From an uncultured Acidobacteriota bacterium (GTDB lineage Bacteria > Acidobacteriota > Thermoanaerobaculia > Multivoradales > UBA5704): DNA of 64,000 bases. The notes beneath the pieces are model-generated. The model ran no database searches, was not told where the DNA came from, and was given only the letters and a program-made list of their open reading frames with translations. Below are positions 3 to 50,573 of this stretch, one piece after another. Numbering within the stretch: position 1 is the stretch's first letter; each line of letters opens with the position of its first letter. The position numbers were made by a program, and so were the translations under genes. The DNA lies in the NCBI GenBank assembly GCA_963770895.1, contig CAVYRF010000002.1, positions 3,936,001-4,000,000 on the forward strand, in the 5' to 3' direction.

Positions 3-16904
<16,902 letters not shown>

Positions 16905-16914
16905 GGGGGGCGCG

Positions 16915-17685
16915 ATGGAACTTGCCAACGTTCGCGCCGTGGTGACCGGAGCCGCTCGCGGTCTCGGGTGGCACTTTGCGCTCGGCCTGCTGGGCGCCGG
17001 TGCCGGCGTCGCCGCCGGCGACCTCGACATCCCCGGTCTGCGCCAGCTCAAGCAGGCGGCGGCGACGCTGCCCGGCACCCTGGTGGCGTCGGCGCTGGAC
17101 GTGGCGGACGAGGCGTCGGCGGCGGCGTTCGTCGATCTCGCGTGGACGCGGCTCGGCAGCTGCAACGTGCTGATCAACAACGCCGGCATCCTGCGCGACG
17201 GCGTTCTGGTGAGCCGCGAGCCGGGGGGGACGCGCAAGCTGCCCAGCGCGCAGTGGGACCGGGTGCTGGAGGTCAACCTCAAGGGGCCGTTCCTGCTGGC
17301 GCGCGAGTTCGCCGCGCGGTGGGTGGAGGCGGGGGACGGCGGCGGTCTGATCGTCAATATCTCCTCGCTGGCGCGGGCGGGCAACGCCGGGCAGTCCAAC
17401 TACGCGGCCGCCAAGGCGGGGCTCGACGCGGCGACGCGCACCTGGGCGCTGGAGCTGGCGCCGTTCGGCATCCGGGTCGCCGGCGTGGCGCCGGGAGTGA
17501 TCGATACGCCGATCCTGGCCGGGGTGTCGGCAGCCGCCCTCGAAGAGCTCAGGAAGGCCATCCTGATCGGGCGCCTGGGGCGCCCCGAGGAGGTGTGGCA
17601 GGCGGTGCGGTTCGTCATCGAATGCGATTTCTTCAACGGCCGGATTCTCGAAGTGGACGGCGGAGCTCGCATGGGCGCCGTGTGA
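16915..17685 (+). CDS. Short-chain dehydrogenase/reductase (FabG-like)
   Basis: TGAARGLG, NNAG and YAAAK motifs. ATG at 16915 follows GAGGGGG, 11 nt after the megasynthase stop. Confidence 0.92.
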   Translation: MELANVRAVVTGAARGLGWHFALGLLGAGAGVAAGDLDIPGLRQLKQAAATLPGTLVASALDVADEASAAAFVDLAWTRLGSCNVLINNAGILRDGVLVSREPGGTRKLPSAQWDRVLEVNLKGPFLLAREFAARWVEAGDGGGLIVNISSLARAGNAGQSNYAAAKAGLDAATRTWALELAPFGIRVAGVAPGVIDTPILAGVSAAALEELRKAILIGRLGRPEEVWQAVRFVIECDFFNGRILEVDGGARMGAV

Positions 17686-17735
17686 GCGTGCCGCGAGAGA
17701 ACCGGCGAGAGCCAGAGAGCTGAGGGACCAACGCC

Positions 17736-19757
17736 ATGTACGTGCTGGGTGTTCACGGTGGGTTGCGGCGCGATTTCGAAGAGGGCGGCACGGACTATCG
17801 CTGGCACGACAGCGCCGCGGTGCTGGTCAAGGACTACGAGGTGATCGCCGCCATCGAGCAGGAGCGGCTCAATCGGGTCAAGCATTCGAACGCCTTCCCC
17901 GCCGACGCGGTGCGCTGCTGCCTTGCCGAGGGCGGCATCGGGTTGGACCAGGTGGATGCCGTCGCGGTCAACCTGTCGCGCGCCACGGTCGATCTGCTGG
18001 CGATGACGCACACCCTGGAGAACCGCAACGAGACGGTGCTTTCCGGGGCGGACCTGCTGGCGGCGCTCTTCCGGCGCGAGTTCGGCGCCGACGTGTCGCG
18101 GCGGCTGCGTTTCTGCAACCACCACCTGGCGCACGCCTACAGCGCCTACCATGCGACCGACTTCGAGCGCTCGCTGGTGATGACGGTGGACGGCGACGGC
18201 GACGGCCTGTGCGGCATGGTGCTGGTCGGCCACGGCGACGACCTGCGCAAGCTGCGTGAGTACCCGGAGCACAAGTCGCTCGGCAGCTGGTACGTGACCA
18301 TGATCCGCATCCTCGGCTACAGCCGGTTCGACGAATACAAGGTGATGGGGCTCGCGCCCTACGGCGATCCCAAGGTCTACGGCGAGCTGTTTCGCAGCCT
18401 CTACCGCTTGCTCGACGACGGCGAGTACGAGCTGCTGCCGACGACGCGCCAGTTCTTTCAGCTCGATCGCGCCGGGGTCCTTGCCCACATCCGCAAGAAG
18501 GCCGAGCCGTTCACCCAGGTGCACAAGGATCTCGCCGCCGCCCTGCAGGCGGCGCTCGAAGACATCGTGATGCACATCCTGCGGCACTTCCAGCGCGAGA
18601 CGCGCGAGGAGCGGCTCTGCCTGGCCGGCGGAGTGGCGCACAACTGCAGCCTGAACGGGCGGATTCTCTACTCCGGCATGTTCAAGGAGGTCTTCGTGCA
18701 GCCGGCGGCGCACGACGCCGGCACCACGCTCGGCGCCGCCTGGTCGGTGCTGCACGAGGCCGGCATCCGGCGGCCGCGGCGGCGCATGACCCACCTCTAC
18801 CTGGGCCGCGGGATCGGCGGCGACGGCGAGATCGAGCGCGAGCTCGCGGCCTGGCGGGATCTCGTCGACTTCGAGCCGGTCGCGGGGATCGCGGCGCGCA
18901 CCGCGCGGCTGCTCGCCGACGGCGCGGTGGTGGCATGGGTGCAGGGGCGCTCCGAGTTCGGGCCGCGCGCCCTCGGCAACCGCAGCATCCTCGCCGACCC
19001 GCGGCCGGCCGACAACAAGGAGCGGATCAACCGCATGGTGAAGAAGCGGGAAGGGTACCGCCCGTTCGCTCCGTCGGTGCAGCAGGAGCGGGCGGGCGAG
19101 TTCTTCGTGGTGACGCCGGCACAGCCGGACTACGCCTTCATGATCTTCGTGCTCGACGTGCAGAAGAGCCGTCAGGCGGAGCTCGGCGCGATCACCCACG
19201 TCGACGGCACGGCGCGCGTGCACACCGTGGCGCGCGAGGCGAACCCGCGCTACTGGGAACTGCTAGACGAGTTCGGCAAGCTGACCGGCGTGCCGATGCT
19301 GCTCAACACCTCGTTCAACAACCACGCCGAGCCGATCGTCGATTCGGTCGAGGATGCGATCGTCTGCTACCTGACGACGGGGCTCGACTACCTGGTGATC
19401 GGCGATTTCCTGGTCAGCAAGCGCGCGGAGGCGGAGGCGCGGGTGCTCGAGCTCGCCGCGAGCCTGGCGCGCACCAAGAAGCTGGTGCGCCGCACCTCCC
19501 CCGACGGGGCGCCGCAGGGGCGGGAGCGGGAGCCGGCGTATTCGATCGACAGCATGGCAAGCGCCTATTTCGGCGAGACCCGGGCGCCGATCTCGGCGGA
19601 GCTGTTCCATCTCCTGGTGCGGGGCGGCGGCGGCGGCCTGGGCGCGGCGGCGCGAGCGTCGGGGATCGCCTCGCCGGAGGCGCTCGGGCGTCTCGCGGCG
19701 GAAGTGCAGGATCTCTGGGGGCGCCGCATGATCGCTCTGCGCCCGCCCGCCAACTGA
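17736..19757 (+). CDS. O-carbamoyltransferase (NodU/CmcH/TobZ family) with C-terminal extension
   Basis: HDSAA, EQERLNRVKH, HHLAHAYS, YKVMGLAPYG, GGVAHN, EFGPRALGNRS, NTSFN motifs. Confidence 0.95.
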   Translation: MYVLGVHGGLRRDFEEGGTDYRWHDSAAVLVKDYEVIAAIEQERLNRVKHSNAFPADAVRCCLAEGGIGLDQVDAVAVNLSRATVDLLAMTHTLENRNETVLSGADLLAALFRREFGADVSRRLRFCNHHLAHAYSAYHATDFERSLVMTVDGDGDGLCGMVLVGHGDDLRKLREYPEHKSLGSWYVTMIRILGYSRFDEYKVMGLAPYGDPKVYGELFRSLYRLLDDGEYELLPTTRQFFQLDRAGVLAHIRKKAEPFTQVHKDLAAALQAALEDIVMHILRHFQRETREERLCLAGGVAHNCSLNGRILYSGMFKEVFVQPAAHDAGTTLGAAWSVLHEAGIRRPRRRMTHLYLGRGIGGDGEIERELAAWRDLVDFEPVAGIAARTARLLADGAVVAWVQGRSEFGPRALGNRSILADPRPADNKERINRMVKKREGYRPFAPSVQQERAGEFFVVTPAQPDYAFMIFVLDVQKSRQAELGAITHVDGTARVHTVAREANPRYWELLDEFGKLTGVPMLLNTSFNNHAEPIVDSVEDAIVCYLTTGLDYLVIGDFLVSKRAEAEARVLELAASLARTKKLVRRTSPDGAPQGREREPAYSIDSMASAYFGETRAPISAELFHLLVRGGGGGLGAAARASGIASPEALGRLAAEVQDLWGRRMIALRPPAN

Positions 19758-19799
19758 CCGCCGTCTCGTGTTCAACTGCAAGGAAAGGGGAAGTGTGCG

Positions 19800-21266
19800 A
19801 TGAAGAAGGCGAGAGTCATCCTCAACGATCCGGCGGAGCCGCCCTTCCGCGGTTCGCCCTCGGTGATCAACGCGGCGCTCAACGATACCCTGCGCGGACT
19901 GGGCTATGAGCTGGCGTGCCTGTACGGCCGGCGCAACTGGCGGGAGGCCGGCACCTTCCTGCCGGTCGAGGAGGCGCGGCAGGTGGTGCGGCTGCGCGCC
20001 CAGGGGGAGTTCGACCTCGAGGTGCGCTGCAACGTTTCGGTGGTGCAGTACCCGTTGGTGCGCCAGGGGGCGCAGAAGAACGTGGTGTTTTTCCATGCGC
20101 TCGTCGGCTATCCGGGATGGTGGCTCGGCAACCAGGTCGTCGACGGCTTCTGGTGCAACTCGGACTACCTGGCACGGGTGGTCGCGTCGCTCCTGGCGAC
20201 GCCGGATTGGGAGCGCGGCGCGCTGCTCGACCCGCGGGCGTTCGCGCTCGCCGGCCGCATCACCCTTCCCCTGCCCTGGCTCGACCGGCCCGAGGGCGTC
20301 CTGGTGGACGGGCCGGAGGCGCTGCCGCAGATCGCCGAGGAGGCGTTGCAGGGCAACGACATCCTGGGCCACTGCGTGGCCGGCAAGCTGGACGAGAAGG
20401 CGGTCTACAGCACCATGCTGGCGCTCAACATGATGGCGGCGCAGGGCGGGCTCGGCCGGCGCTTCCGGCTGTTCGTGGAACGGTTTCTCTACGACGGCAT
20501 GAAGGGCGCGCTGAGCGCCGACACCGGAGCGGTGCCGTCCGAGTTCGCGCCGCTCAAGGCGGCCTTGGGGCAGCTCGGCATGACGATCGACGACATCCTG
20601 ATTCCGGTGCCGAGGCTCGCCCAGGCGGCGCTCTTCCGGCTGATGCGGGGATGCCGGTTCGGGCTCTTCTATCACTGGTTTCCCGAGCCGTTCGGGCTCC
20701 ACCCCCTGGAGTCGGTCTGCCTGGGATGCCCGATCTACACCAACGGCGCCGGCAACCTGCGCTACCTGTTGCCGGAAGGGCACGGCATCACGGTGTTCGA
20801 GACCGAAGGCATGGCGTTCGGCAACGTCGCCGAGTACCGCGCGGTGGCGGAGCGGATCTTCCGCGACGCGGTGCTGAGCCCGGCGGCCGCCGGCGCGGAG
20901 GCATGCAGGCGCGGCGCCGACTACATCGCGCGCACCTACACCCGCGAGGCGATGCGGCAGGACGTGGCGGCGCGCCTGGCGGCGCTGACCGAGGCGCCGG
21001 TCGAGACGGCGCTCGCGGCGACGCGGGTGGCGCTCAGCCCGCTCGTGCGCTCGTGGAACCCGCAGAGCCGGCGCGTCGTCTCGGACTACCGCAGCGTCGA
21101 GTTGAGCGCCGAGCAGAGCGCAACGCTCGGCGAGGTGGTGGGGCGGTCGGGCGGCGACGTCGGCGGCGACCGCGCGCTGCGCGAGCGGGCCGGCGAGCTG
21201 TTCGATCTGGGCGTCCTGGCACTGCAGCCGGCGGCGGCCGGCGGCGCGCCGGCGGAGGCGGGGTGA
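19800..21266 (+). CDS. Divergent GT-B (GT4-like) glycosyltransferase
   Basis: EX7E motif EPFGLHPLE followed by GCPIY. Purine-rich RBS. Co-oriented with the cluster. Confidence 0.55.
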   Translation: MKKARVILNDPAEPPFRGSPSVINAALNDTLRGLGYELACLYGRRNWREAGTFLPVEEARQVVRLRAQGEFDLEVRCNVSVVQYPLVRQGAQKNVVFFHALVGYPGWWLGNQVVDGFWCNSDYLARVVASLLATPDWERGALLDPRAFALAGRITLPLPWLDRPEGVLVDGPEALPQIAEEALQGNDILGHCVAGKLDEKAVYSTMLALNMMAAQGGLGRRFRLFVERFLYDGMKGALSADTGAVPSEFAPLKAALGQLGMTIDDILIPVPRLAQAALFRLMRGCRFGLFYHWFPEPFGLHPLESVCLGCPIYTNGAGNLRYLLPEGHGITVFETEGMAFGNVAEYRAVAERIFRDAVLSPAAAGAEACRRGADYIARTYTREAMRQDVAARLAALTEAPVETALAATRVALSPLVRSWNPQSRRVVSDYRSVELSAEQSATLGEVVGRSGGDVGGDRALRERAGELFDLGVLALQPAAAGGAPAEAG

Positions 21267-21277
21267 CGCGGCGGCGC

Positions 21278-22642
21278 TCAGATCTCGAGCACGATGCCTT
21301 CGGTGGCGCCGTGCGCCGAGTTGATCACGCCGTCGCCGGTCCCCTTGGGCATCATGCGCAGGAAGGCTCCGCCGTAGAGCTTGCCGAAGCAGAAGAGGCC
21401 CCAGATCACGTCATGCGCCGTCCAGCCGTGCGGGCCGGCCTGGTAGAGATAGGGTTTCGATTCGACGAACTCCTGCGCCAGCCAGCCGGCCTGGCCCAGG
21501 GTCGCGCCGACGATCGATTGCCAGTCGGTGGGGGAGGTGTGGCGCCCCACGTGAACGTCCATTCCCTTGAGGCCGTGGGCCGGTTTGATCACCAGGTCCT
21601 GGCGATGCTCCATGAGGATGTCGCGCAGCGGACCGCTCGCGTCGCGGAAGGAGGTGTGCGCGGTCGTCAGGTCGCGCGACCAGGGTATGTGCTTGGCGAT
21701 GAGCTGCCGTTCGGCGGCGGAGAAGGCGTCGGAGTCCGCATGCCGTGAGAGCAGGCCGAGGTTGCGCTTGTCGCTCAGCAGCGGGCCCAGGGGGCCGGGA
21801 TAGAGGTTTACCCGGCCGCTCTTGAAAGCGCGGAAGATCTGCTCCGATTCGTTCGGATACATCTCGACGATCGCATGGATCGGCCAGCCGTTTTCGTGCA
21901 CCATCCCGTTGCGCACCGTCATGCGCTCGTAGCTGCACACCCGCACCTGGCCCTCGAGCCCGCGGCCGTCCGCTGCGAGGATGCCGGCGTAGAGACGGTT
22001 GAACGCCCGCAGCTCCTGGGGATCGTTGACCTGGTGATCGGGCGGGAAGGCGATTCCGAGGTTGAGGGTACCGCCGGCGCAGACCGCGGTGTCCAGGTTG
22101 TCGAGCACCACGTGGCGGAAGAGCAGGGCGAACGGATCGCGGTGGCGGGGCCGCAGCGCATGCTCCTCATGGAAGCGCGAGAGCACCGGGTGATCCATGA
22201 ACGAGCGCGCGAAATAGCGCATCTGCCAGCCGCCGAGCGAGCCGGCGTTCACCTCCAGGACCTTGAAGCCGTGCTCGGCTTCGATGAAGTCGTGACGGAC
22301 CACGAGTCCCGGCAGGCCGTTCGGCGGCTCCAGCAGGAGGTCGACCAGGGTGGGATCGGGGATGGCGTAGAAGTCGGCGATGCGGCGGCTGTCGTTGGCG
22401 AAGACCCGTGCGAGCAGGGTGCGGATGAGGTCGGTGACGCCGACCGTGGCGCTTTCGATCTCGCGCAGCTTGTCCTGGTCGATATAGGTGGGCCAGGCTT
22501 GGATCGAGAAGTAGCGGCCCAGGGAGGTGGCGCGCAGCCAGTCGGGGTAGCCGGTCGCGAGATGATCGATGGGCCGGGCACGGGCGGGATCCTCCCGCAT
22601 GTAGTTGAGGAAGCGACGCGAAGTGATGACCCCGTTCACCAT
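21278..22642 (-). CDS. ATP-grasp-like amide ligase (glutathionylspermidine synthase / circularly permuted ATP-grasp type)
   Basis: RHDF...KVLEVNAG, LVIKP..G.KG.DVHVG, WLAQEFV, GVINSAHG. The start codon is uncertain (could be 22600). Confidence 0.65.
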   Translation of the reverse strand: MVNGVITSRRFLNYMREDPARARPIDHLATGYPDWLRATSLGRYFSIQAWPTYIDQDKLREIESATVGVTDLIRTLLARVFANDSRRIADFYAIPDPTLVDLLLEPPNGLPGLVVRHDFIEAEHGFKVLEVNAGSLGGWQMRYFARSFMDHPVLSRFHEEHALRPRHRDPFALLFRHVVLDNLDTAVCAGGTLNLGIAFPPDHQVNDPQELRAFNRLYAGILAADGRGLEGQVRVCSYERMTVRNGMVHENGWPIHAIVEMYPNESEQIFRAFKSGRVNLYPGPLGPLLSDKRNLGLLSRHADSDAFSAAERQLIAKHIPWSRDLTTAHTSFRDASGPLRDILMEHRQDLVIKPAHGLKGMDVHVGRHTSPTDWQSIVGATLGQAGWLAQEFVESKPYLYQAGPHGWTAHDVIWGLFCFGKLYGGAFLRMMPKGTGDGVINSAHGATEGIVLEI

Positions 22643-22669
22643 GGTTTCGATCGCGGCAAGAGGTGATCG

Positions 22670-24394
22670 ATGGCTGAGTTGATCAAGTTGTTTGGCATGC
22701 TTTTTCGCTTCACGCGCGGCAACCCGCGCCTGGTCCGGCTACAGGTGCTGGCGCTGGTGGGAACGTCGATCGTGGCGGGCCTTGCGAACACCGGCCTGCT
22801 GGCGTTGATCAACGCCAGGATCGGCCGCCTGACCGAGCCGGCAGGGCGGCTGGTATGGATCTTCGCCGCTCTTTGCGTGCTTCTGCCCCTGACCCGCTTT
22901 GCCTCGCAGGCATTCCTGGTACACATGTCGCAAAATATCACATACGACTTGCGAATGACCTTGAGCCGGCGCATCCTGGCGGCGCCCCTGCGCACCCTGG
23001 AGGAGCTCGGCGCGGCGCGCCTGCTGGCCACGGTGACCGAGGACATCGGCACCATCATCAACGCCCTCACCAACGTGCCGCTCGTCTGCCTGCAAACAAC
23101 GGTGGTGGTCAGCTGCCTGATCTATCTCGGCTGGCTGCATTGGGGCCTGCTGCTCGTGGTCGTCGCCTTCGTCACCGTGGGCGTGATCAGCTACCGCACG
23201 CCGCTGCGCCGCTCGCTGCGTCATTTTCATCTGGGGCGCGAGAGGTGGGACGAGGTCTTCGAGAGCCTGCGCGGGCTCACCTCCGGGGTCAAGGAGCTCA
23301 AGATGCACGGCGCGCGGCGGGCCGACTTCTTCGCCCGCAAGCTCGAACCGGCCGCGGTGGACCTGCGGCGTCATTTCATCGCCGGCGCGACCATCTCCGC
23401 CGTCGCCAACAGCTGGGGGCAGGTGCTCTTCTTCGTGATCATCGGCCTGCTGCTCTTCGTGCTGCCGGGGAGCGTTTCCCTGAGCCCCAAGGTGCTGGTC
23501 GGCTACACCCTCACGATCCTCTACATGCTGACGCCGCTCGACGTCATGCTCAACGTGCTGCCGACGCTCGGCCGCGCCGTCATCTCGGCGCGCAAGATCG
23601 AGCAGCTGGGGCTGTCGCTCGACGGCGCCGCGAGCGAGCCGGTCGAGGCCGGTGGCGTGCCGGCGCTCGGCGGGTGGCGGTCGGTCGAGCTGGCCGCCGT
23701 CACCCATACCTTCTACCGCGAGGACAGCGACGACAACTTCACGCTCGGTCCCATCGACTTGCACATCAAGCCCGGCGAGCTGGTCTTTCTGATCGGCGGC
23801 AACGGCAGCGGCAAGACCACCCTGGCAAAGCTGCTGCTCGGCCTCTATCGGCCGGAGAGCGGCGAGCTGCGCCTGGACGGCAGGACCGTCACCGACGCCG
23901 ATCGCGACGCCTATCGGCAGCTCTTTTCCGTCGTCTTTTCAGATTTTTTTCTTTTCGATCTGCTGCTCGGCCTGCCTGACCCTCACCTGGACGACAGCGC
24001 CCGCGGCTATCTGCGCAAGCTGCATCTGGAGCGCAAGGTGCGCGTCGAGCAGGGGGCGCTCTCCACCCTCGACCTTTCGCAGGGGCAGCGCAAGCGCCTC
24101 GCCCTGCTCACCGCCTACCTGGAGGACCGCCCCATCTATCTGTTCGACGAATGGGCCGCCGACCAGGACCCCCAGTTCAAGGAGATCTTCTATCTACAGC
24201 TCCTGCCCGAGCTCAAGGCGCGCGGCAAGACCGTTGTCGTCATCAGCCACGACGACCAGTATTACGGCACCGCCGACCGCCTGGTCAAGATCAACTACGG
24301 CCAGCTCGAATACTCCGGCGGCGTTGGCGAATATCTCGCTGCGCTGGCCGCCCAGCGTCCGCCTGCGGACGCCCTGGCGCCGGCGGAGTCGTGA
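22670..24394 (+). CDS. Cyclic peptide export ABC transporter (SyrD/PvdE/YojI family)
   Basis: About 6 TM segments followed by GGNGSGKTT, LSQGQRKRLAL and FDEWAADQDP. Confidence 0.95.
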   Translation: MAELIKLFGMLFRFTRGNPRLVRLQVLALVGTSIVAGLANTGLLALINARIGRLTEPAGRLVWIFAALCVLLPLTRFASQAFLVHMSQNITYDLRMTLSRRILAAPLRTLEELGAARLLATVTEDIGTIINALTNVPLVCLQTTVVVSCLIYLGWLHWGLLLVVVAFVTVGVISYRTPLRRSLRHFHLGRERWDEVFESLRGLTSGVKELKMHGARRADFFARKLEPAAVDLRRHFIAGATISAVANSWGQVLFFVIIGLLLFVLPGSVSLSPKVLVGYTLTILYMLTPLDVMLNVLPTLGRAVISARKIEQLGLSLDGAASEPVEAGGVPALGGWRSVELAAVTHTFYREDSDDNFTLGPIDLHIKPGELVFLIGGNGSGKTTLAKLLLGLYRPESGELRLDGRTVTDADRDAYRQLFSVVFSDFFLFDLLLGLPDPHLDDSARGYLRKLHLERKVRVEQGALSTLDLSQGQRKRLALLTAYLEDRPIYLFDEWAADQDPQFKEIFYLQLLPELKARGKTVVVISHDDQYYGTADRLVKINYGQLEYSGGVGEYLAALAAQRPPADALAPAES

Positions 24395-24562
24395 GACTTC
24401 GCGACGGCGGCGACGGCGACGATCAAGGAAGACGACGCCGGATTGGCAAAACGCCGTCGACGCATCAGCGGACTTGTTGCAAACACTTATTGGCGCTATG
24501 CTTGGAACGCCGCCCGACGGCGCGCCGCCGCGCCGCCGCGCCGCCGCAAGAAAGGATAGCCC

Positions 24563-25612
24563 GTGATCGACAACCCCGAGAGCGCCCCTGCCGCAGGCGG
24601 GATTCAGGGTCGGGCGCGGCGCCGCTCCATCGGTCTGACGCTCGAAAACCTGATCGAAACCCGCACCCTGACACCGCTGGGCGAGCTGCCCCTGGTGATC
24701 TCGCCGCGCGTCCCGGGGCTCGATCTCGCGGTGTGGGCGGCCGATCAACGCGGCTTCGTCGAGGCGAGCCTGCTGCGTCACGGCGGGATCCTCTTCCGCG
24801 GTTTCGCCATCGATCAGCCGCAGAAGCTCGAGACCTTCATCCATGCGATCTCCGGCGAGGCGCTCGAGTACCGCGAGCGCTCGTCGCCGCGCAGCGCCGT
24901 CGAAGGCCGTATCTATACTTCGACCGACTATCCGCCGACGCACTCGATCTTCCTGCACAACGAGAACTCCTACCAGACCGTCTGGCCGCTCAAGATCTTC
25001 TTCTGCTGCCAGACCCCGGCGGCTGAGGGCGGCGAGACGCCGATCGCCGACTGCCGGCGCGTGCTCGCCGGCATGGACCCCGCGGTGCGCGACCGCTTCA
25101 TCGACAAGGGGTGGATGTATGTGCGCAATTTCGGCGACGGTCTGGGGCTCGACTGGCCCACGGTCTTCCAGACCTCCGACAAGGCCGCGGTCGAGGAGCA
25201 CTGCCGCAAGAGCGGCATCCAGGTGGAGTGGAAGGCCGGCGATCGCCTGCGCACCCGCGCCATCCGGCCGGCGGTGACCCGGCATCCGAAGAGCGGCGAG
25301 ATGCTCTGGTTCAATCACGCTACCTTCTTCCACGTCTCGACCCTGGCGCCCGACATCCGCCGGGCCCTGCGCGCCGAGTTCACCGACGACGAGCTGCCGG
25401 CCAACACCTATTACGGCGACGGCAGCCCGATCGAGCCCGAAACGCTGGATCATCTGCGCCGTCTCTACGAGCAGGAGACGCTCTGCTTCCCATGGGAGAA
25501 GGGCGACGTCATGCTGCTCGACAACATGGTCGTCGCACACGGCCGCTCACCCTTCCGCGGCGAGCGCAAGATCCTGGTGGGCATGGCCGAGCCGGTACAG
25601 CGCGAAGCTTGA
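24563..25612 (+). CDS. TauD/TfdA-family Fe(II)/2-oxoglutarate dioxygenase (SyrP-like)
   Basis: YTSTDYP, LHNENSY (HxE), WFNH, DNMVVAHGR. Confidence 0.93.
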   Translation: MIDNPESAPAAGGIQGRARRRSIGLTLENLIETRTLTPLGELPLVISPRVPGLDLAVWAADQRGFVEASLLRHGGILFRGFAIDQPQKLETFIHAISGEALEYRERSSPRSAVEGRIYTSTDYPPTHSIFLHNENSYQTVWPLKIFFCCQTPAAEGGETPIADCRRVLAGMDPAVRDRFIDKGWMYVRNFGDGLGLDWPTVFQTSDKAAVEEHCRKSGIQVEWKAGDRLRTRAIRPAVTRHPKSGEMLWFNHATFFHVSTLAPDIRRALRAEFTDDELPANTYYGDGSPIEPETLDHLRRLYEQETLCFPWEKGDVMLLDNMVVAHGRSPFRGERKILVGMAEPVQREA

Positions 25613-36342: not shown

Positions 36343-37098
36343 TCAGGCGGGCGAAGAGGCCAGGTCGGCGGCGATCTCCTGGAGCAGCGCGGTGCGGGAT
36401 GAGTTGACGAACATGTGGGCGCCATCCAGGACGACGGCGCGAAACGGCCCGGTGGTCTCCCTGCGCCACTGCTGGATCTCGGCTGGGTCTGCCTCCGGAT
36501 CGCACGTGCCGCAAAAGGCGGTCAGGGGCATTGCCAGCGGCGGCCCGTTGCGGTACGCGTAGCTCTCGACCAGGGCGTAGTCGCCGTACAGGCTGGGCAG
36601 CACCACGTCCAGCAGATCCGCGCTATCGAGAAGCGCCGGGCTGACCTCGAACGAGTCGCGCAGCGCGGCGATGAACTCTTCCCGCGGCAGTCCGCTGATC
36701 AAAGGCCTGCGGCGCGGCAGATGGGGCGCCGGGTGCCCGGACACGAACAGCCGCATAGGCAGCCTCCTGCCCCGATCGCGCAGCTCGCGCGCCAGCTCGA
36801 ACGCCACCAGCGACCCGACGCTGTGTCCGAACAGCGCAAACGGCAGATCCAGCAGCGGCTCCACCACCTGCACCAGCGCCGCAACCATGTCCGGGATGCG
36901 CGTGATCGCCGGCTCCCCCAGGCGGCTCTCCCGCGCCGGCGGCTGCATCGCGCAAAGGTCGACATGAGGGGGCAAGGCGTTCCGCCACAGCGCAAAAGAA
37001 GACGCCCCGCCGCCGCCAAACGGAAAACAGAACAGCCGCACCCGCTGCTCCGAGCCCGGCCGCCGATACGGCATCCACTTCGCCAAAGCCCCGCTCAC
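36343..37098 (-). CDS. Type II thioesterase
   Basis: RLFCFPFGGGGAS, GHSVG, GAHMF. Confidence 0.92.
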   Translation of the reverse strand: MSGALAKWMPYRRPGSEQRVRLFCFPFGGGGASSFALWRNALPPHVDLCAMQPPARESRLGEPAITRIPDMVAALVQVVEPLLDLPFALFGHSVGSLVAFELARELRDRGRRLPMRLFVSGHPAPHLPRRRPLISGLPREEFIAALRDSFEVSPALLDSADLLDVVLPSLYGDYALVESYAYRNGPPLAMPLTAFCGTCDPEADPAEIQQWRRETTGPFRAVVLDGAHMFVNSSRTALLQEIAADLASSPA

Positions 37099-47197: not shown

Positions 47198-48388
47198 CTA
47201 CAGCGTGTCGTCCGGCAGGGTGCGGCGGGCGGCGGCCATGGTGTCTGCCCAGGCGCCGCGGTCGCCGCTTTCGACCAGCGATTCGAGGTGGGCGAGCGCT
47301 TCGCGCGTGGCGCGGTAGACGTCGCTGCGGAAGGGATTGAGGCGCTGGATGTCGAGGTACAGGTCGGGATCTTCGCCCAGCACCGAGCGGGCGGTGGCGG
47401 CCTGCCGCAGGAAGGTGGTCGAGGCGCAGTCGTGCAGCTCGGTGGGGGAAACGCCGCTGCGGCTGAGGGCGGCGCCGAACAGCAGGTTGGTGAGATGGGC
47501 CAGGCCCAGGAGCCACCCCATCAGGCGGTCGTGGTGGAGGAACGGCACCGCGACCAGGCGCGTGTAGGGGTGCGACACGAAAGGGGCGATCTCGGCCTGC
47601 TCGATGGCGGCGTCGCGCCGCGTCGCCAGGACGAAGACCAGCGGCTCGTAGGGCGACTTGCCCGGGCCGAACATCGGGTGGAGCGACAGCACCCGCAGGC
47701 CCGCGCTCTCCGCCTGCGCCAGGACCGGTTGGAGCGGCGCCTTGACGGAAGCGATTTCGATCACGATCGGCAGGGTGGCGGATGCGGCCGGCCCGGCGGG
47801 TGCGCCGGGAGCGTCCGCGGGATGGCCGGCCTGACCGCCGGCGCGCGCCACCAGCTCTTCGACGACCGCCGGCGTGTGCCCGAGCGGCACGGCCACCAGC
47901 ACCGCCGCGTAGGCGTCGAGAGCCGGGGCATCCGCCAACCTGGCGAAGGTGCCCGCCTGCGGCGGCAGCCCGGCAAAGGCGGGGTCCACCAGGTCGCAGC
48001 GGTGCCCGGCCAGCTCGTAAAAGGCGCGGAACCACCCGCCCATGCCGCCGGCGCCGCCCAGGATCAACAGCCGTTCGCCGCGGCGCGCCCGCAGTTCGAC
48101 GCCCACCCGGTGCTGGCGCTCGACCGAGCCGCGGATGACGGCGCGGAAGATCGATTCGAGCACGTCTTCGGACACGCCGCAGCTGGCGGCCTGCTGGCGC
48201 GCGCGCTGCAGCACCTGGTGCTCGACGTCGCGCACGACGATGGGGGCGCCGCGCTCGGCCTTGATGCGCCCCACCTCGCCGGCGATCTCCATGCGCCGGC
48301 GCAGCAGCTCGAGCAGCGCCCGATCCAATTCGGCGATGGCGTCGCGCAGCGGCGGCAGCGGATCGGGCGGGGTCGTGGTCCTGGCCAT
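47198..48388 (-). CDS. tyrA: Bifunctional chorismate mutase / prephenate dehydrogenase
   Basis: N-terminal AroQ-type LRDAIAELDR..LL.RR, Rossmann GGAGGMG, ASVK, HPMFGP, HDRLM. Confidence 0.85.
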   Translation of the reverse strand: MARTTTPPDPLPPLRDAIAELDRALLELLRRRMEIAGEVGRIKAERGAPIVVRDVEHQVLQRARQQAASCGVSEDVLESIFRAVIRGSVERQHRVGVELRARRGERLLILGGAGGMGGWFRAFYELAGHRCDLVDPAFAGLPPQAGTFARLADAPALDAYAAVLVAVPLGHTPAVVEELVARAGGQAGHPADAPGAPAGPAASATLPIVIEIASVKAPLQPVLAQAESAGLRVLSLHPMFGPGKSPYEPLVFVLATRRDAAIEQAEIAPFVSHPYTRLVAVPFLHHDRLMGWLLGLAHLTNLLFGAALSRSGVSPTELHDCASTTFLRQAATARSVLGEDPDLYLDIQRLNPFRSDVYRATREALAHLESLVESGDRGAWADTMAAARRTLPDDTL

Positions 48389-48482
48389 GGGCAGGAAAGA
48401 CTAGCAAATGAGCAGCCCTCCGCGCCGGCATCGTGCCCGCGGGAGGGCTGGTTGCACGCCGCGCGTGCCCGGCAGGGTCAGG

Positions 48483-48647
48483 TCAGCAGATGCAGGTGTT
48501 GCAGTGCGTGTGGTTGCAATACGTGCAGCTGGCTCCGGGGCACTGCGTGGCAGGGAGCTCACCGCTGATCCCGCCGCCGACCTTGATCAGGACGCCGGTG
48601 TCGAGGCTGCGCAGGGTCTCGCGATGCAGCTTGATCCGCTTCTTCAT
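48483..48647 (-). CDS. Putative RiPP precursor peptide, 54 aa: MKKRIKLHRETLRSLDTGVLIKVGGGISGELPATQCPGASCTYCNHTHCNTCIC
   Basis: Translated by hand (below the ORF-track cutoff). AGGAGG RBS, basic leader with IKLHRETL, GG motif, core with 6 Cys and 6 Ser/Thr, GC3-rich codons. Confidence 0.85.
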   Translation of the reverse strand: MKKRIKLHRETLRSLDTGVLIKVGGGISGELPATQCPGASCTYCNHTHCNTCIC

Positions 48648-48722
48648 GACGTGCTGTACCTCCTGCCGCTGGCGCGGTGTTAGGGGTTACAACCTCAAAA
48701 GTGCCGCGGAGAGGTTGAACCG

Positions 48723-50480
48723 CTACCGATCGGCGCGATAGCCGGGACCGTAGAGCGGCCGGCCGGGGCGGGCGTCGGTGATCTGCCCGCCGTCGACCAC
48801 CAGCTGGCCGTTGACGGCGACGTAGGGGATGCCGGCGCTGTAGTGGAGCGGATCGGTGTAGGTGGCGACGTCGCGGATCTCGGTGGGGCTGAACACCACC
48901 AGGTCGGCCGCCATGCCGGGGCGGACGATGCCGCGATCGGCGATGCCCATGCGCGAGGCCGGCAGCGAGGTCATCTTGCGCACCGCCTCTTCGAGCGTCA
49001 GCACCTTTTCGTCGCGCACGTAGTGACCGAGGATGCGGGGAGCGGACGCCCAGGCGCGCGGGTGCGACTTTTCCTGGCCCAGGATGCCGTCCACCGCCTC
49101 GGCGTTCGAATCGGTGCACAGGGCGACCAGGCGGTCGGCGAGCGCCGTGCGCACGTCCCGGTCGTCCATGATGAACACGATGTTGGCGGTGTGGGCGCGG
49201 TCGGCGATCACCAGGTCCATGATGACGTCCACCTCGTCCTTGCCTTCGGCCTTGGCGATGTCGGCGATGGTCTTGCCTTCGTATTTCTTCAGCTCGGGGG
49301 CGACGGTCGTGGCGATCAGGATGTTGGCGCCGCCGCCGGCGCACTGGTACTGGTTCTCCCAGGTACGGTCGTCGCGGTGCACTTCCGCACGCACCCGCGC
49401 CCGCACGGCGGGGTCCTTGAGGCGCTCGACCATGCGGTCGGTGCCGCCGTCGCGGACCCATACCGGCAGGTTGGCGTCCAGGCCGTTCTCTCCGGCCGTC
49501 CAGGGGTACTGATCGGCGGCGACGTCCAGCCCGGCGGCGCGCGCTTCTTCCAGGCGGGCGAGGACGTGCGGCATCGTGCCCCACGTTCCCTTGCAGGCGG
49601 TCTTCAGATGGTAGATCTGGGCGGGGAGCCTGGCCTCACGCGCGATGCGGAAGATTTCGTCCAGGCTGCCGTCGATGGCGTAGCCTTCGGAGCGCTGGTG
49701 GGTGATGTAGCTGCCGCCGTAGCGCGCCGCGACCTTGGCCAGGGCGATGATCTCGTCGGTCGAGGCGAAGCGGTCGGGGACGTACTGCAGCGACGTCGAC
49801 AGGCCGAAGGCGCCGTCTTCCATCGCGTCGGCCACCGCCTTTTCCATCGCCGCCAGCTCCGCCGGGGTGGCCTGGCGGTCGCTTTCGCCGAGCACCAGGT
49901 TGCGCACGCCGCCCTCGCCGACGAAGGTGCCCAGGTTGATCGCCGGGCGCGCCCGCTGAAAGACCCGCCAGTATTCGCGCAGGGTGGTCCAGGTGGGCTT
50001 GACCCCGTAATGCTCGTAGTAGTCCTTCTCTTCGTCGATCATGCGCTGATTGATCGGCGCGATCGAGGAGCCTTCGCCGGTGATCTCGGTGGTGATGCCC
50101 TGGGTGATCTTGCTGGCCGCGCGGTTGTCCACCAGGACGGTGTATTCGGACTGCCCCAGCATGTCGATGAAACCGGGCGCCACGGCCAGGCCGCGCGCGT
50201 CGATGCGCCGCCTGGCCCGTGCGCCGGCCAGCAGGCCGACCGCGGCGATCTTGTCGCCGGCGACGCACACGTCGGCGCGGAACCACGGCGCGCCGGTGCC
50301 GTCGACGACGCGCCCGCCTTCGATGAGCAGGTCGCACTCGGGAGCCGCCGGTGCGGCGGGGGTTGGAGCCGCGGCCGCCGCTGTGGCGGGCGGCCTGGCC
50401 TGCGGGCGACCGGCGGTCGGAGTGAGCAGCGCCAGGCAGGCGGCGGCGGCAAGCAAGCGAGCGGCAAACGCGCGGACCAT
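48723..50480 (-). CDS. Secreted N-acyl-D-amino-acid deacylase (D-aminoacylase, amidohydrolase family)
   Basis: GGRVVDGTG, PGFID, QGITT, THQRSE, HLK, HPR, TLEEAVRKMT, ADLVVF. Confidence 0.9.
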   Translation of the reverse strand: MVRAFAARLLAAAACLALLTPTAGRPQARPPATAAAAAPTPAAPAAPECDLLIEGGRVVDGTGAPWFRADVCVAGDKIAAVGLLAGARARRRIDARGLAVAPGFIDMLGQSEYTVLVDNRAASKITQGITTEITGEGSSIAPINQRMIDEEKDYYEHYGVKPTWTTLREYWRVFQRARPAINLGTFVGEGGVRNLVLGESDRQATPAELAAMEKAVADAMEDGAFGLSTSLQYVPDRFASTDEIIALAKVAARYGGSYITHQRSEGYAIDGSLDEIFRIAREARLPAQIYHLKTACKGTWGTMPHVLARLEEARAAGLDVAADQYPWTAGENGLDANLPVWVRDGGTDRMVERLKDPAVRARVRAEVHRDDRTWENQYQCAGGGANILIATTVAPELKKYEGKTIADIAKAEGKDEVDVIMDLVIADRAHTANIVFIMDDRDVRTALADRLVALCTDSNAEAVDGILGQEKSHPRAWASAPRILGHYVRDEKVLTLEEAVRKMTSLPASRMGIADRGIVRPGMAADLVVFSPTEIRDVATYTDPLHYSAGIPYVAVNGQLVVDGGQITDARPGRPLYGPGYRADR

Positions 50481-50573
50481 GGTCACCTCCGGAGGATGCG
50501 GTGGCGCGATGGTAGCACCGCCGCGCCTCGCCGAGAGGGCGGGTGGGTGGCGGGGTCGCGGCCGGATGGGCGG

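Follow-up and report, generated by a model that had tools for sequence, protein, structure and literature searches.

A dispersed family of putative class I lanthipeptide precursors in an uncultured soil Acidobacteriota bacterium

How might a small peptide gene be matured by enzymes that are encoded nowhere near it? The question is raised by a 54-codon open reading frame (ORF) in a 64-kb stretch of DNA (the window; 64,000 nucleotides, positions 3,936,001 to 4,000,000 of contig CAVYRF010000002.1, assembly GCA_963770895.1) from an uncultured Acidobacteriota bacterium of the class Thermoanaerobaculia. A preliminary description, made from the letters of the window, had read this ORF as an orphan precursor of a peptide made on ribosomes and modified after translation (RiPP), one of a dispersed family matured in trans. 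We found that the ORF is a gene, that it belongs to a family of 97 small ORFs sharing a leader, that the genome encodes candidate maturation and export proteins, and that genes for precursor (LanA), cyclase (LanC), dehydratase (LanB) and peptidase-containing ATP-binding cassette transporter (PCAT) cluster together in relatives. With appreciable doubt, we favour the reading that the window ORF encodes a working class I LanA from a diverged branch of the L1a type, which would be matured in trans by LanB and LanC and exported by a PCAT.

The peptide gene and its genomic family

The coordinates and the translation of the ORF, MKKRIKLHRETLRSLDTGVLIKVGGGISGELPATQCPGASCTYCNHTHCNTCIC (54 aa), match the preliminary description letter for letter, and the AGGAGG ribosome-binding site and the count of 6 Cys and 6 Ser/Thr residues in the 28-aa core were likewise recovered (Table 1). 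Scored with a codon log-odds table trained on 281 long ORFs of the source genome, the window ORF reached +13.6 and the best of the other five frames +0.4; among 2705 control ORFs of 40–75 aa starting with ATG, the median was −12 and a Shine–Dalgarno-like site was present in 13%. A simple gene caller using the same codon table called the ORF unprompted. An identical 54-aa protein is already listed in a protein collection, so that the ORF has been predicted by at least one gene caller. We conclude that it is a genuine gene, more than a chance reading frame. Variant contigs from three soil-metagenome runs (X1, X2 and X3; four DNA runs were compared as contigs) carry 8 substitutions within 34 nt just upstream of the ATG (48649–48682), with AGGAGG unaltered in all three and no change in the covered part of the upstream gene (48723–48859). 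The X3 contig spans the whole 165-nt ORF with 0 changes, and the X1 and X2 contigs cover its 5′ part only (48537/48538 onward). Because the variant represents one strain, the unchanged ORF is a weak hint of constraint.

A single-sequence protein search with the window peptide returned only the peptide itself; homologues emerged from profile searches. Within the source genome (8.16 Mb on three contigs, C1 to C3; 70.7% GC), a single-peptide search gave 42 matches at E ≤ 10, and a regular expression for the leader gave 38 frames, 35 of which ended within 90 residues of the motif and served as profile seeds. The resulting leader profile found 97 small ORFs (E ≤ 0.05, ending within 85 residues of the leader start), of which 21, 70 and 85 remain at E ≤ 1e-10, 1e-5 and 1e-3, respectively; the window ORF matches at E 4.7e-11. 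The dispersed family that had been postulated is thus present: 66 members lie on C2, 30 on C1 and 1 on C3, and another member is found within 2 kb for only 18 of the 97. Where the profile match begins with Met (81 members), a Shine–Dalgarno-like site precedes the ORF in 75 cases, compared with 13% for the controls; of all 97 members, 94 score best for coding in the named frame.

Leaders are far better conserved than cores, with a mean pairwise identity of 39.5% as against 21.4% (3160 pairs, 80 members); only two pairs in this set are at least 70% identical overall. The cores have a median of 26 aa, 4 Cys and 6 Ser/Thr, and consist of 15.9% Cys, 14.7% Thr and 8.0% Ser (His, 1.8%), relative to 0.8%, 5.05% and 4.8%, respectively, in 280 long ORFs. 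Each Cys can be matched to a distinct N-terminal Ser/Thr in 89/96 cores compared with 19/96 reversed cores, and the first Ser/Thr stands ahead of the first Cys in 91/95. The window core passes this polarity test, is exactly balanced at 6:6 and offers a distinct upstream Ser/Thr for each Cys. The Cys number is odd in 40/96 cores, so disulfides alone do not fit. We conclude that the family cores resemble lanthipeptide cores and are not merely Cys-rich peptides. The earlier likening to prochlorosins holds in that the precursors are many and unlinked, their leaders conserved and their Cys/Thr-rich cores hypervariable; prochlorosins, however, go with a LanM synthetase and Nif11-type leaders, whereas the present family tracks LanB in relatives.

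Other features of the family were noted in passing. Members do not lie in a compositional island: judged by 5-kb windows, the local GC content is under the background's 5th percentile for only 3/97. The genome has 62 genes for MacB-like duplicated permeases (MacB_PCD plus FtsX twice, ~800 aa; for example locus L035, C2:76574-78994), of which 6 have a member no more than 500 bp away where chance would give 2.8, a count reached in 50/1000 simulations; the association is weak and we do not claim a link. Pairs of M16-family peptidase genes lie 0.8–5 kb from precursor genes at two loci (C1:316263-319132 and C2:80097-83350), and could possibly encode leader-trimming proteases. Cys is the last residue of 40/97 peptides, the type of substrate used by LanD-like decarboxylases, which form aminovinyl-cysteine (AviCys). 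One of three PF02441 flavoprotein genes (C1:792656-793180) is 1.3 kb from a family member (C1:791216-791362); LanD and housekeeping CoaBC are both candidates for its product, and we make no claim for AviCys here.

Leader type and predicted docking on LanB

Residues 5–15 of the window peptide, IKLHRETLRSL, form an I-x-L-x-R-x5-L box that fits LxLx(K/R)x5L with Arg for Lys, and the leader has a double-glycine-type end, GGG at residues 24–26. Counting from cleavage after G26, V stands at −4 and L at −7, −12 and −15, hydrophobic positions that we take to be those of double-glycine bacteriocin leaders. Unlike such leaders, the family has an additional N-terminal LxLxRx5L box, which is predicted to bind LanB. 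The preliminary description had assigned the leader to the lanthipeptide or double-glycine type, in agreement with Walker et al. (2020, PMC7268733), according to whom class I LanAs of Bacteroidetes carry LxLxKx5L in place of FxLD, often with GG as the last residues of the leader, and their clusters frequently include a C39 protease.

The NCBIfam model for such leaders, NF038153 (lant_leader_L1a, ‘class I lanthipeptide’), has a curated cutoff of 22 bits. It matches 12/19 aligned family members at E ≤ 1, below the cutoff, and five LanB-adjacent peptides of relatives at 31.9–39.5 bits, above it. LanB-adjacent ORFs of relatives also match a leader profile made from the source genome only, at E 1e-10 to 1e-15. 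As far as sequence similarity can assign it, the family leader is a diverged branch of the NF038153 L1a-type class I lanthipeptide leaders. A profile search of public proteins gave 1012 matches at E ≤ 1e-3 among 3261 candidates, mostly metagenomic; among the 120 matches listed, 6 bear ‘class I lanthipeptide’ names and come from metagenome-assembled genomes (MAGs) of Thermoanaerobaculia.

We predicted the complex of LanB residues 1–800 (46-LanB alignment) with the peptide (19-paralog alignment) in three runs, together with three controls. All three runs scored 0.68, compared with 0.00 for the best control, and contacts agreed between runs to at least 41%. The score mark is met by 58/80 solved complexes and 2/110 mismatched pairs, counts that hold only roughly here because custom alignments were used. 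In the confidently predicted contacts, peptide residues 3–16, the LxLxRx5L box, touch LanB residues 199–223 (strand 211–218) and 275–292. The model supports docking of the leader box on a LanB strand, short of demonstrating it. The structure of the NisB complex with the NisA leader has reportedly been solved, and the favourable score may for that reason reflect likeness to NisB–NisA rather than binding by the window copy.

Maturation enzymes, relatives and local context

The maturases that the preliminary description had placed elsewhere in the genome were located there. The source genome encodes one full-length LanB (C2:5,180,053-5,183,583; 1177 aa, PF04738 + PF14028), convergent with a 501-aa LanC (PF05147) that has WCYG and CHG motifs, an arrangement shared with genome G039 and the closest MAGs. 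There are also a LanB-N-only protein of 890 aa and eight further stand-alone LanC-like genes. Four LanC paralogs (C2:3.320, C2:3.321, C1:1.011 and C2:2.967 Mb) share 35–46% identity with the LanC beside LanB or among themselves and keep the AHG, WC(Y/A)G and CHG motifs, presumably the catalytic His and Zn ligands of LanC, so that Zn-motif LanCs number at least five. Five family members directly abut LanC-like genes, one other is 3.5 kb from a LanM, and none lies beside the full-length LanB. Both LanMs of the genome have an adjacent small ORF of their own with a longer leader unlike that of the 97-member family, which is why we assign the system to class I rather than to LanM. Candidates for export are three C39-ABC transporters (PCATs) that keep the catalytic Cys (Q..(D/E)CG and HFVV motifs), matching the double-glycine-type site of the leader. 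One of these (771 aa) follows a GAF-HlyD protein at C2:2.970–2.975 Mb, near a LanC paralog, as in the clusters of relatives. The genome further encodes one LanKC-like protein (RamC_N, kinase and LanC domains) and single or few matches to other RiPP enzymes (YcaO 1, SPASM 5, MNIO 2), none adjacent to a member, the closest being a SPASM gene 5 kb from one. The peptide was to be doubted if paralogs or maturases were lacking and expression too; paralogs and maturases are both present.

Among 201 genomes (200 of the same class plus the source genome), the leader profile was found in 22 and PF04738, the LanB N-domain, in 28. PF04738 occurred in 22/22 leader-positive genomes compared with 6/179 leader-negative ones, and a leader ORF lies 0.4–4.5 kb from LanB in 16/21 of the other leader-positive genomes (21/21 and 15/20 without the unpublished genome G179, on which no other result depends). 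Three annotated clusters read GAF-domain protein, PCAT, LanA, a 1.2-kb gap and LanB in G055; GAF/HlyD, PCAT, six LanAs and LanB in G133; and PCAT, LanA, LanB and convergent LanC in G039. Leader-family ORFs were also present in 33/80 named LanB-homolog loci (flanks of at most 8 kb, several ended by contig ends), from Thermoanaerobaculia, Holophagales, Acidobacteriaceae, Archangium, Cystobacter, Myxococcus, Kofleriaceae and a few other MAGs, and a LanC homolog lies beside LanB in 73/110 loci searched. The family profile is thus homologous to peptides encoded beside LanB.

The source LanB is at most 73% identical to LanBs of Thermoanaerobaculia MAGs and nests among them with strong support, so that the source genome most likely belongs to this class of Acidobacteriota. 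Among the best 32 candidates of each genome, leader matches numbered 32 in the source genome, 30 in G041, 30 in G097 and 21 in G153 (all of the same family) and 32 in G020 (same order), compared with one in most other leader-positive genomes; these counts saturate because at most 32 candidates were scored. G041, G097 and G153 combine an orthologous LanB with many leader matches. G065, of the same family, has neither, its best PF04738 match (E 2e-75) aligning to the source LanB over only 264 aa at 25% identity. No leader ORF was found within ~8 kb of LanB in G041, G153 or the source genome; G020 retains a cluster of LanB, 2 LanA and LanC beside its dispersed copies. On this distribution the expansion of the leader family appears as a lineage trait.

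The same searches turned up further loci with RiPP-enzyme domains. Two LanC-like genes, 74% identical (C1:1579906-1581435, L025:17906-19435; C2:2707854-2709301, L026:7854-9301), lack both Zn-ligand motifs, WCYG being replaced by WAYA and CHG by GFG or GYG. A sub-branch of peptides with an ‘RI(N/A)xETLLPL’ leader has cores entirely without Cys, each encoded after a LanC-like gene without Zn-ligand motifs; the two would be a cyclase-like protein and substrate unable to form thioethers. The LanM-adjacent precursors are 68 or 82 aa long (L022:8447-8653 and L029:11212-11460, both minus strand; C2, ~4.307 and 0.276 Mb), and a family member is present as well in one of the two LanM clusters, with an alpha/beta-hydrolase/S9-like gene 90 bp downstream of it. 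A 1034-aa protein with a signal-peptidase S26-like N-terminus and RamC_N, kinase and LanC-like domains is encoded at L027:14988-18089 (plus strand; C2, ~3.85-3.86 Mb), near a 1344-aa RHS-repeat protein with a C39 peptidase domain (L027:3063-7094, plus strand). The gene immediately upstream of LanB, on the LanB strand (L021:13790-14530, minus strand; C2, ~5.184 Mb), encodes a Gly/Asn-rich protein of 246 aa that has Cys in its C-terminal part; we rejected it as an alternative LanB substrate, as no counterpart lies beside LanB in 109 other loci.

Table 1 Features at and around the window ORF (positions of the 64-kb window)
Feature	Coordinates	Strand	Description
Precursor gene	48483..48647	minus	54 codons, ATG start, TGA stop at 48483-48485
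Leader	48570..48647	minus	residues 1-26, MKKRIKLHRETLRSLDTGVLIKVGGG
Core	48486..48569	minus	residues 27-54, ISGELPATQCPGASCTYCNHTHCNTCIC
Shine–Dalgarno site AGGAGG	48659..48664	minus	plus-strand CCTCCT; 11 nt before ATG
Upstream neighbour	48726..50486	minus	Amidohydro_3 (D-aminoacylase-like); outside the peptide system, marks orphan context
Downstream neighbour	47201..48388	minus	396-aa protein with chorismate mutase type II domain (CM_2), tyrA-like; outside the peptide system
GC-rich hairpin	48413..48450	minus	between peptide stop and CM_2 gene start

The location given earlier, between genes for a D-aminoacylase and tyrA, agrees with the domains found: the ORF occupies a 334-nt gap between the Amidohydro_3 and CM_2 genes, all three on the same strand. 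A 102-nt fold at the hairpin has −46.6 kcal/mol (z = −1.46 versus shuffles, not significant); on weak evidence, the hairpin may be a leaky terminator or stabiliser. Elsewhere, the window's left end cuts through the gene for a hybrid PKS-NRPS megasynthase (positions 3–16904, plus strand; KS-AT-ACP-aminotransferase-C-A...), which exceeds 5633 aa. Behind it come genes for SDR, carbamoyltransferase, ABC transporter and TauD-like dioxygenase proteins and, at a greater distance, one for a thioesterase (16915–25609, 36346–37098). This cluster is separate from, and unrelated to, the peptide.

Proposed pathway, alternatives and significance

In the pathway that we propose for the window peptide, the LxLxRx5L box would dock as a strand on the single full-length LanB, which would dehydrate up to six Ser/Thr of the core. 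The LanB-convergent LanC, or one of at least four other Zn-motif LanCs, would add the six Cys thiols to give (methyl)lanthionine rings. The C39-ABC transporter with the GAF-HlyD partner would then cut after GGG and export a 28-residue polycyclic peptide, any bioactivity of which is likewise putative. Lanthipeptide biosynthesis in which one enzyme serves many substrates is documented for class II, with ProcM and SyncM. A class I counterpart, in which one LanB reads the LxLxRx5L leader on ~100 unlinked precursors and few LanC paralogs cyclise them, seems to us plausible, if somewhat short of an even chance; sister genera (G041, G153 and G097) appear to have the same layout. What appears to be new is that ~97 copies without linkage occur together with only one LanB and with several LanC paralogs, the window peptide itself being a sub-threshold member of a known leader type.

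Several results weigh against a functional class I LanA at this locus. As the preliminary description had said of the flanks, no LanB, LanC or LanM and no radical-SAM or peptidase gene is near: the 33 window proteins scanned have no LanB, LanC, LanM, radical-SAM, YcaO, MNIO or C39 domain, and all genome-wide matches to these families are located outside the window. The gene is ~121 kb from the nearest LanC-like domain and ~1.2 Mb from LanB, so that LanB and LanC do not share a gene cluster with the peptide. The window peptide had 0 family matches at E ≤ 10, NF038153 included; six of seven siblings scored 11.6–19.3 bits with that model, all below the cutoff, and one gave no match. We found no sigma-70-like promoter or consensus terminator at 48250–48900, no Rfam match at 48300–48800 and, in a crude test upstream of the 81 Met-start members, no 7-mer enriched more than ~3-fold and no common promoter. 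In the predicted complex the peptide has a pLDDT of 41–44, low confidence in its own fold. Three of the possible Thr–Cys pairs in the window core have T-x-C spacing, which is short for known lanthipeptide rings. The window gene has no positional ortholog in four same-family genomes, where the Amidohydro_3 and CM_2 genes are on different contigs with no leader ORF there. On a LanB tree of 46 rows, adjacency of LanA is patchy (14 changes against a shuffled mean of 15.1), so that an orphan LanB is no clean clade trait; we dropped the idea that it marks a derived clade, the label being unclustered on the tree, and do not claim a single loss event. Finally, a natural class I LanB that acts on many precursors encoded at unlinked loci was not found described in the literature searched, which had most subscription journals and supplements outside it, and the trans step is thus without precedent in that literature. 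A class I many-precursor system may nonetheless have been described before, and the precursor lists of Walker et al. may include related Acidobacteriota peptides.

The absence of LanB and LanC near the gene would also suit a peptide that is exported without dehydration, a Cys-rich double-glycine peptide with disulfides (three here) and a bacteriocin-like or signalling role, LanB and LanC serving only the few LanC-adjacent copies. The double-glycine-type leader, the three PCATs with catalytic Cys, the even number of Cys (6) in the window copy and the drift of the family leaders below the NF038153 cutoff fit such a peptide too. We consider it unlikely, as it leaves the Ser/Thr-before-Cys polarity and the threefold Thr enrichment of the cores unexplained and sits poorly with the many odd Cys numbers, and as the leader box, for which a PCAT has no need, is the best-conserved part of the family and the predicted LanB contact. 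The window copy could instead be a duplicated precursor that is silent or decaying, no longer expressed or processed, in line with the missing positional ortholog and promoter. Against this, which we think distinctly unlikely, stand the intact ATG, AGGAGG, full leader and 6:6 core, the positive coding score, the unchanged 165 nt of the X3 variant below 8 changes in 34 nt (one strain, and weak) and the in-frame coding bias of nearly all members, unexpected for a decaying family.

That another class of maturase reads a similar leader, a radical-SAM/SPASM enzyme as for the GG-type RiPPs of TIGR04149 or an enzyme not yet recognised, is in our view improbable to a high degree. TIGR04149 is weakly matched by 2/19 members and, at 17.9–27.1 bits, by the LanB-adjacent LanAs of relatives, and the SPASM, MNIO and YcaO proteins of the genome include the one encoded 5 kb from a member; however, no such gene abuts a member, and the leader's neighbours in relatives are LanB and LanC, not radical-SAM genes. 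The preliminary description had also raised metal binding by an unmodified peptide, from the C-x2-C (twice) and H-x-H (once) motifs of the window core. This idea found no family-level support, because the spacing of CxxC and HxH is not conserved across the 96 cores (mean identity 21%); His is scarce in them, and a cleavable export leader is not expected of a cytoplasmic metal chaperone. We regard metal binding as very remote.

A class I LanA matured in trans, the reading that we prefer, can be set beside known systems. It shares with the NF038153/pinensin-type LanAs of class I described from Bacteroidetes (Walker et al., 2020, PMC7268733) the leader box, the GG end, a core with Cys and Ser/Thr, and genes for LanB, LanC and a C39 transporter in the genome, and the profile-matched peptides of relatives adjoin LanB; unlike those LanAs, the window box has Arg for Lys (RETL), the gene is unlinked to a maturase and ~97 copies occur in one genome rather than one to few. 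The prochlorosins of ProcM (class II), for which a review gives 29 precursors (PMC12328550), likewise combine scattered genes and conserved leaders with hypervariable cores, and their substrates far outnumber the synthetases, whereas the present family has a class I LanB and separate LanCs (at least five with Zn motifs) in place of LanM, a leader that is not of the Nif11 type, and a soil Acidobacteriota host rather than a marine cyanobacterium. Double-glycine/PCAT systems find a parallel in the PCATs that flank LanAs in relatives. The radical-SAM-modified precursors of TIGR04149 (Bacteroidota/CFB) have a similar N-terminal leader, but here no radical-SAM/SPASM gene is next to any member and relatives show a LanB and LanC context. 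Within the same bacterial class, the class II tha/the clusters (PMC13083261), in which LanM is joined by a GMC oxidase that forms a thiazole at a Gly-Cys/GGC motif, also have Cys-rich lanthipeptide-type cores; unlike them, the window core has no GGC and the leader family tracks LanB.

Curated leader models and cluster-based miners overlook such genes. The window peptide has no NF038153 match and is encoded 1.2 Mb away from LanB, so that Acidobacteriota probably have more RiPPs than have been counted. If one LanB does serve the whole family, no natural lanthipeptide library seen so far in a single genome would be larger, and it would be a large untapped one from a hard-to-culture soil phylum; a substrate-tolerant LanB, a short portable leader box and ~100 natural cores would together make an engineering platform.

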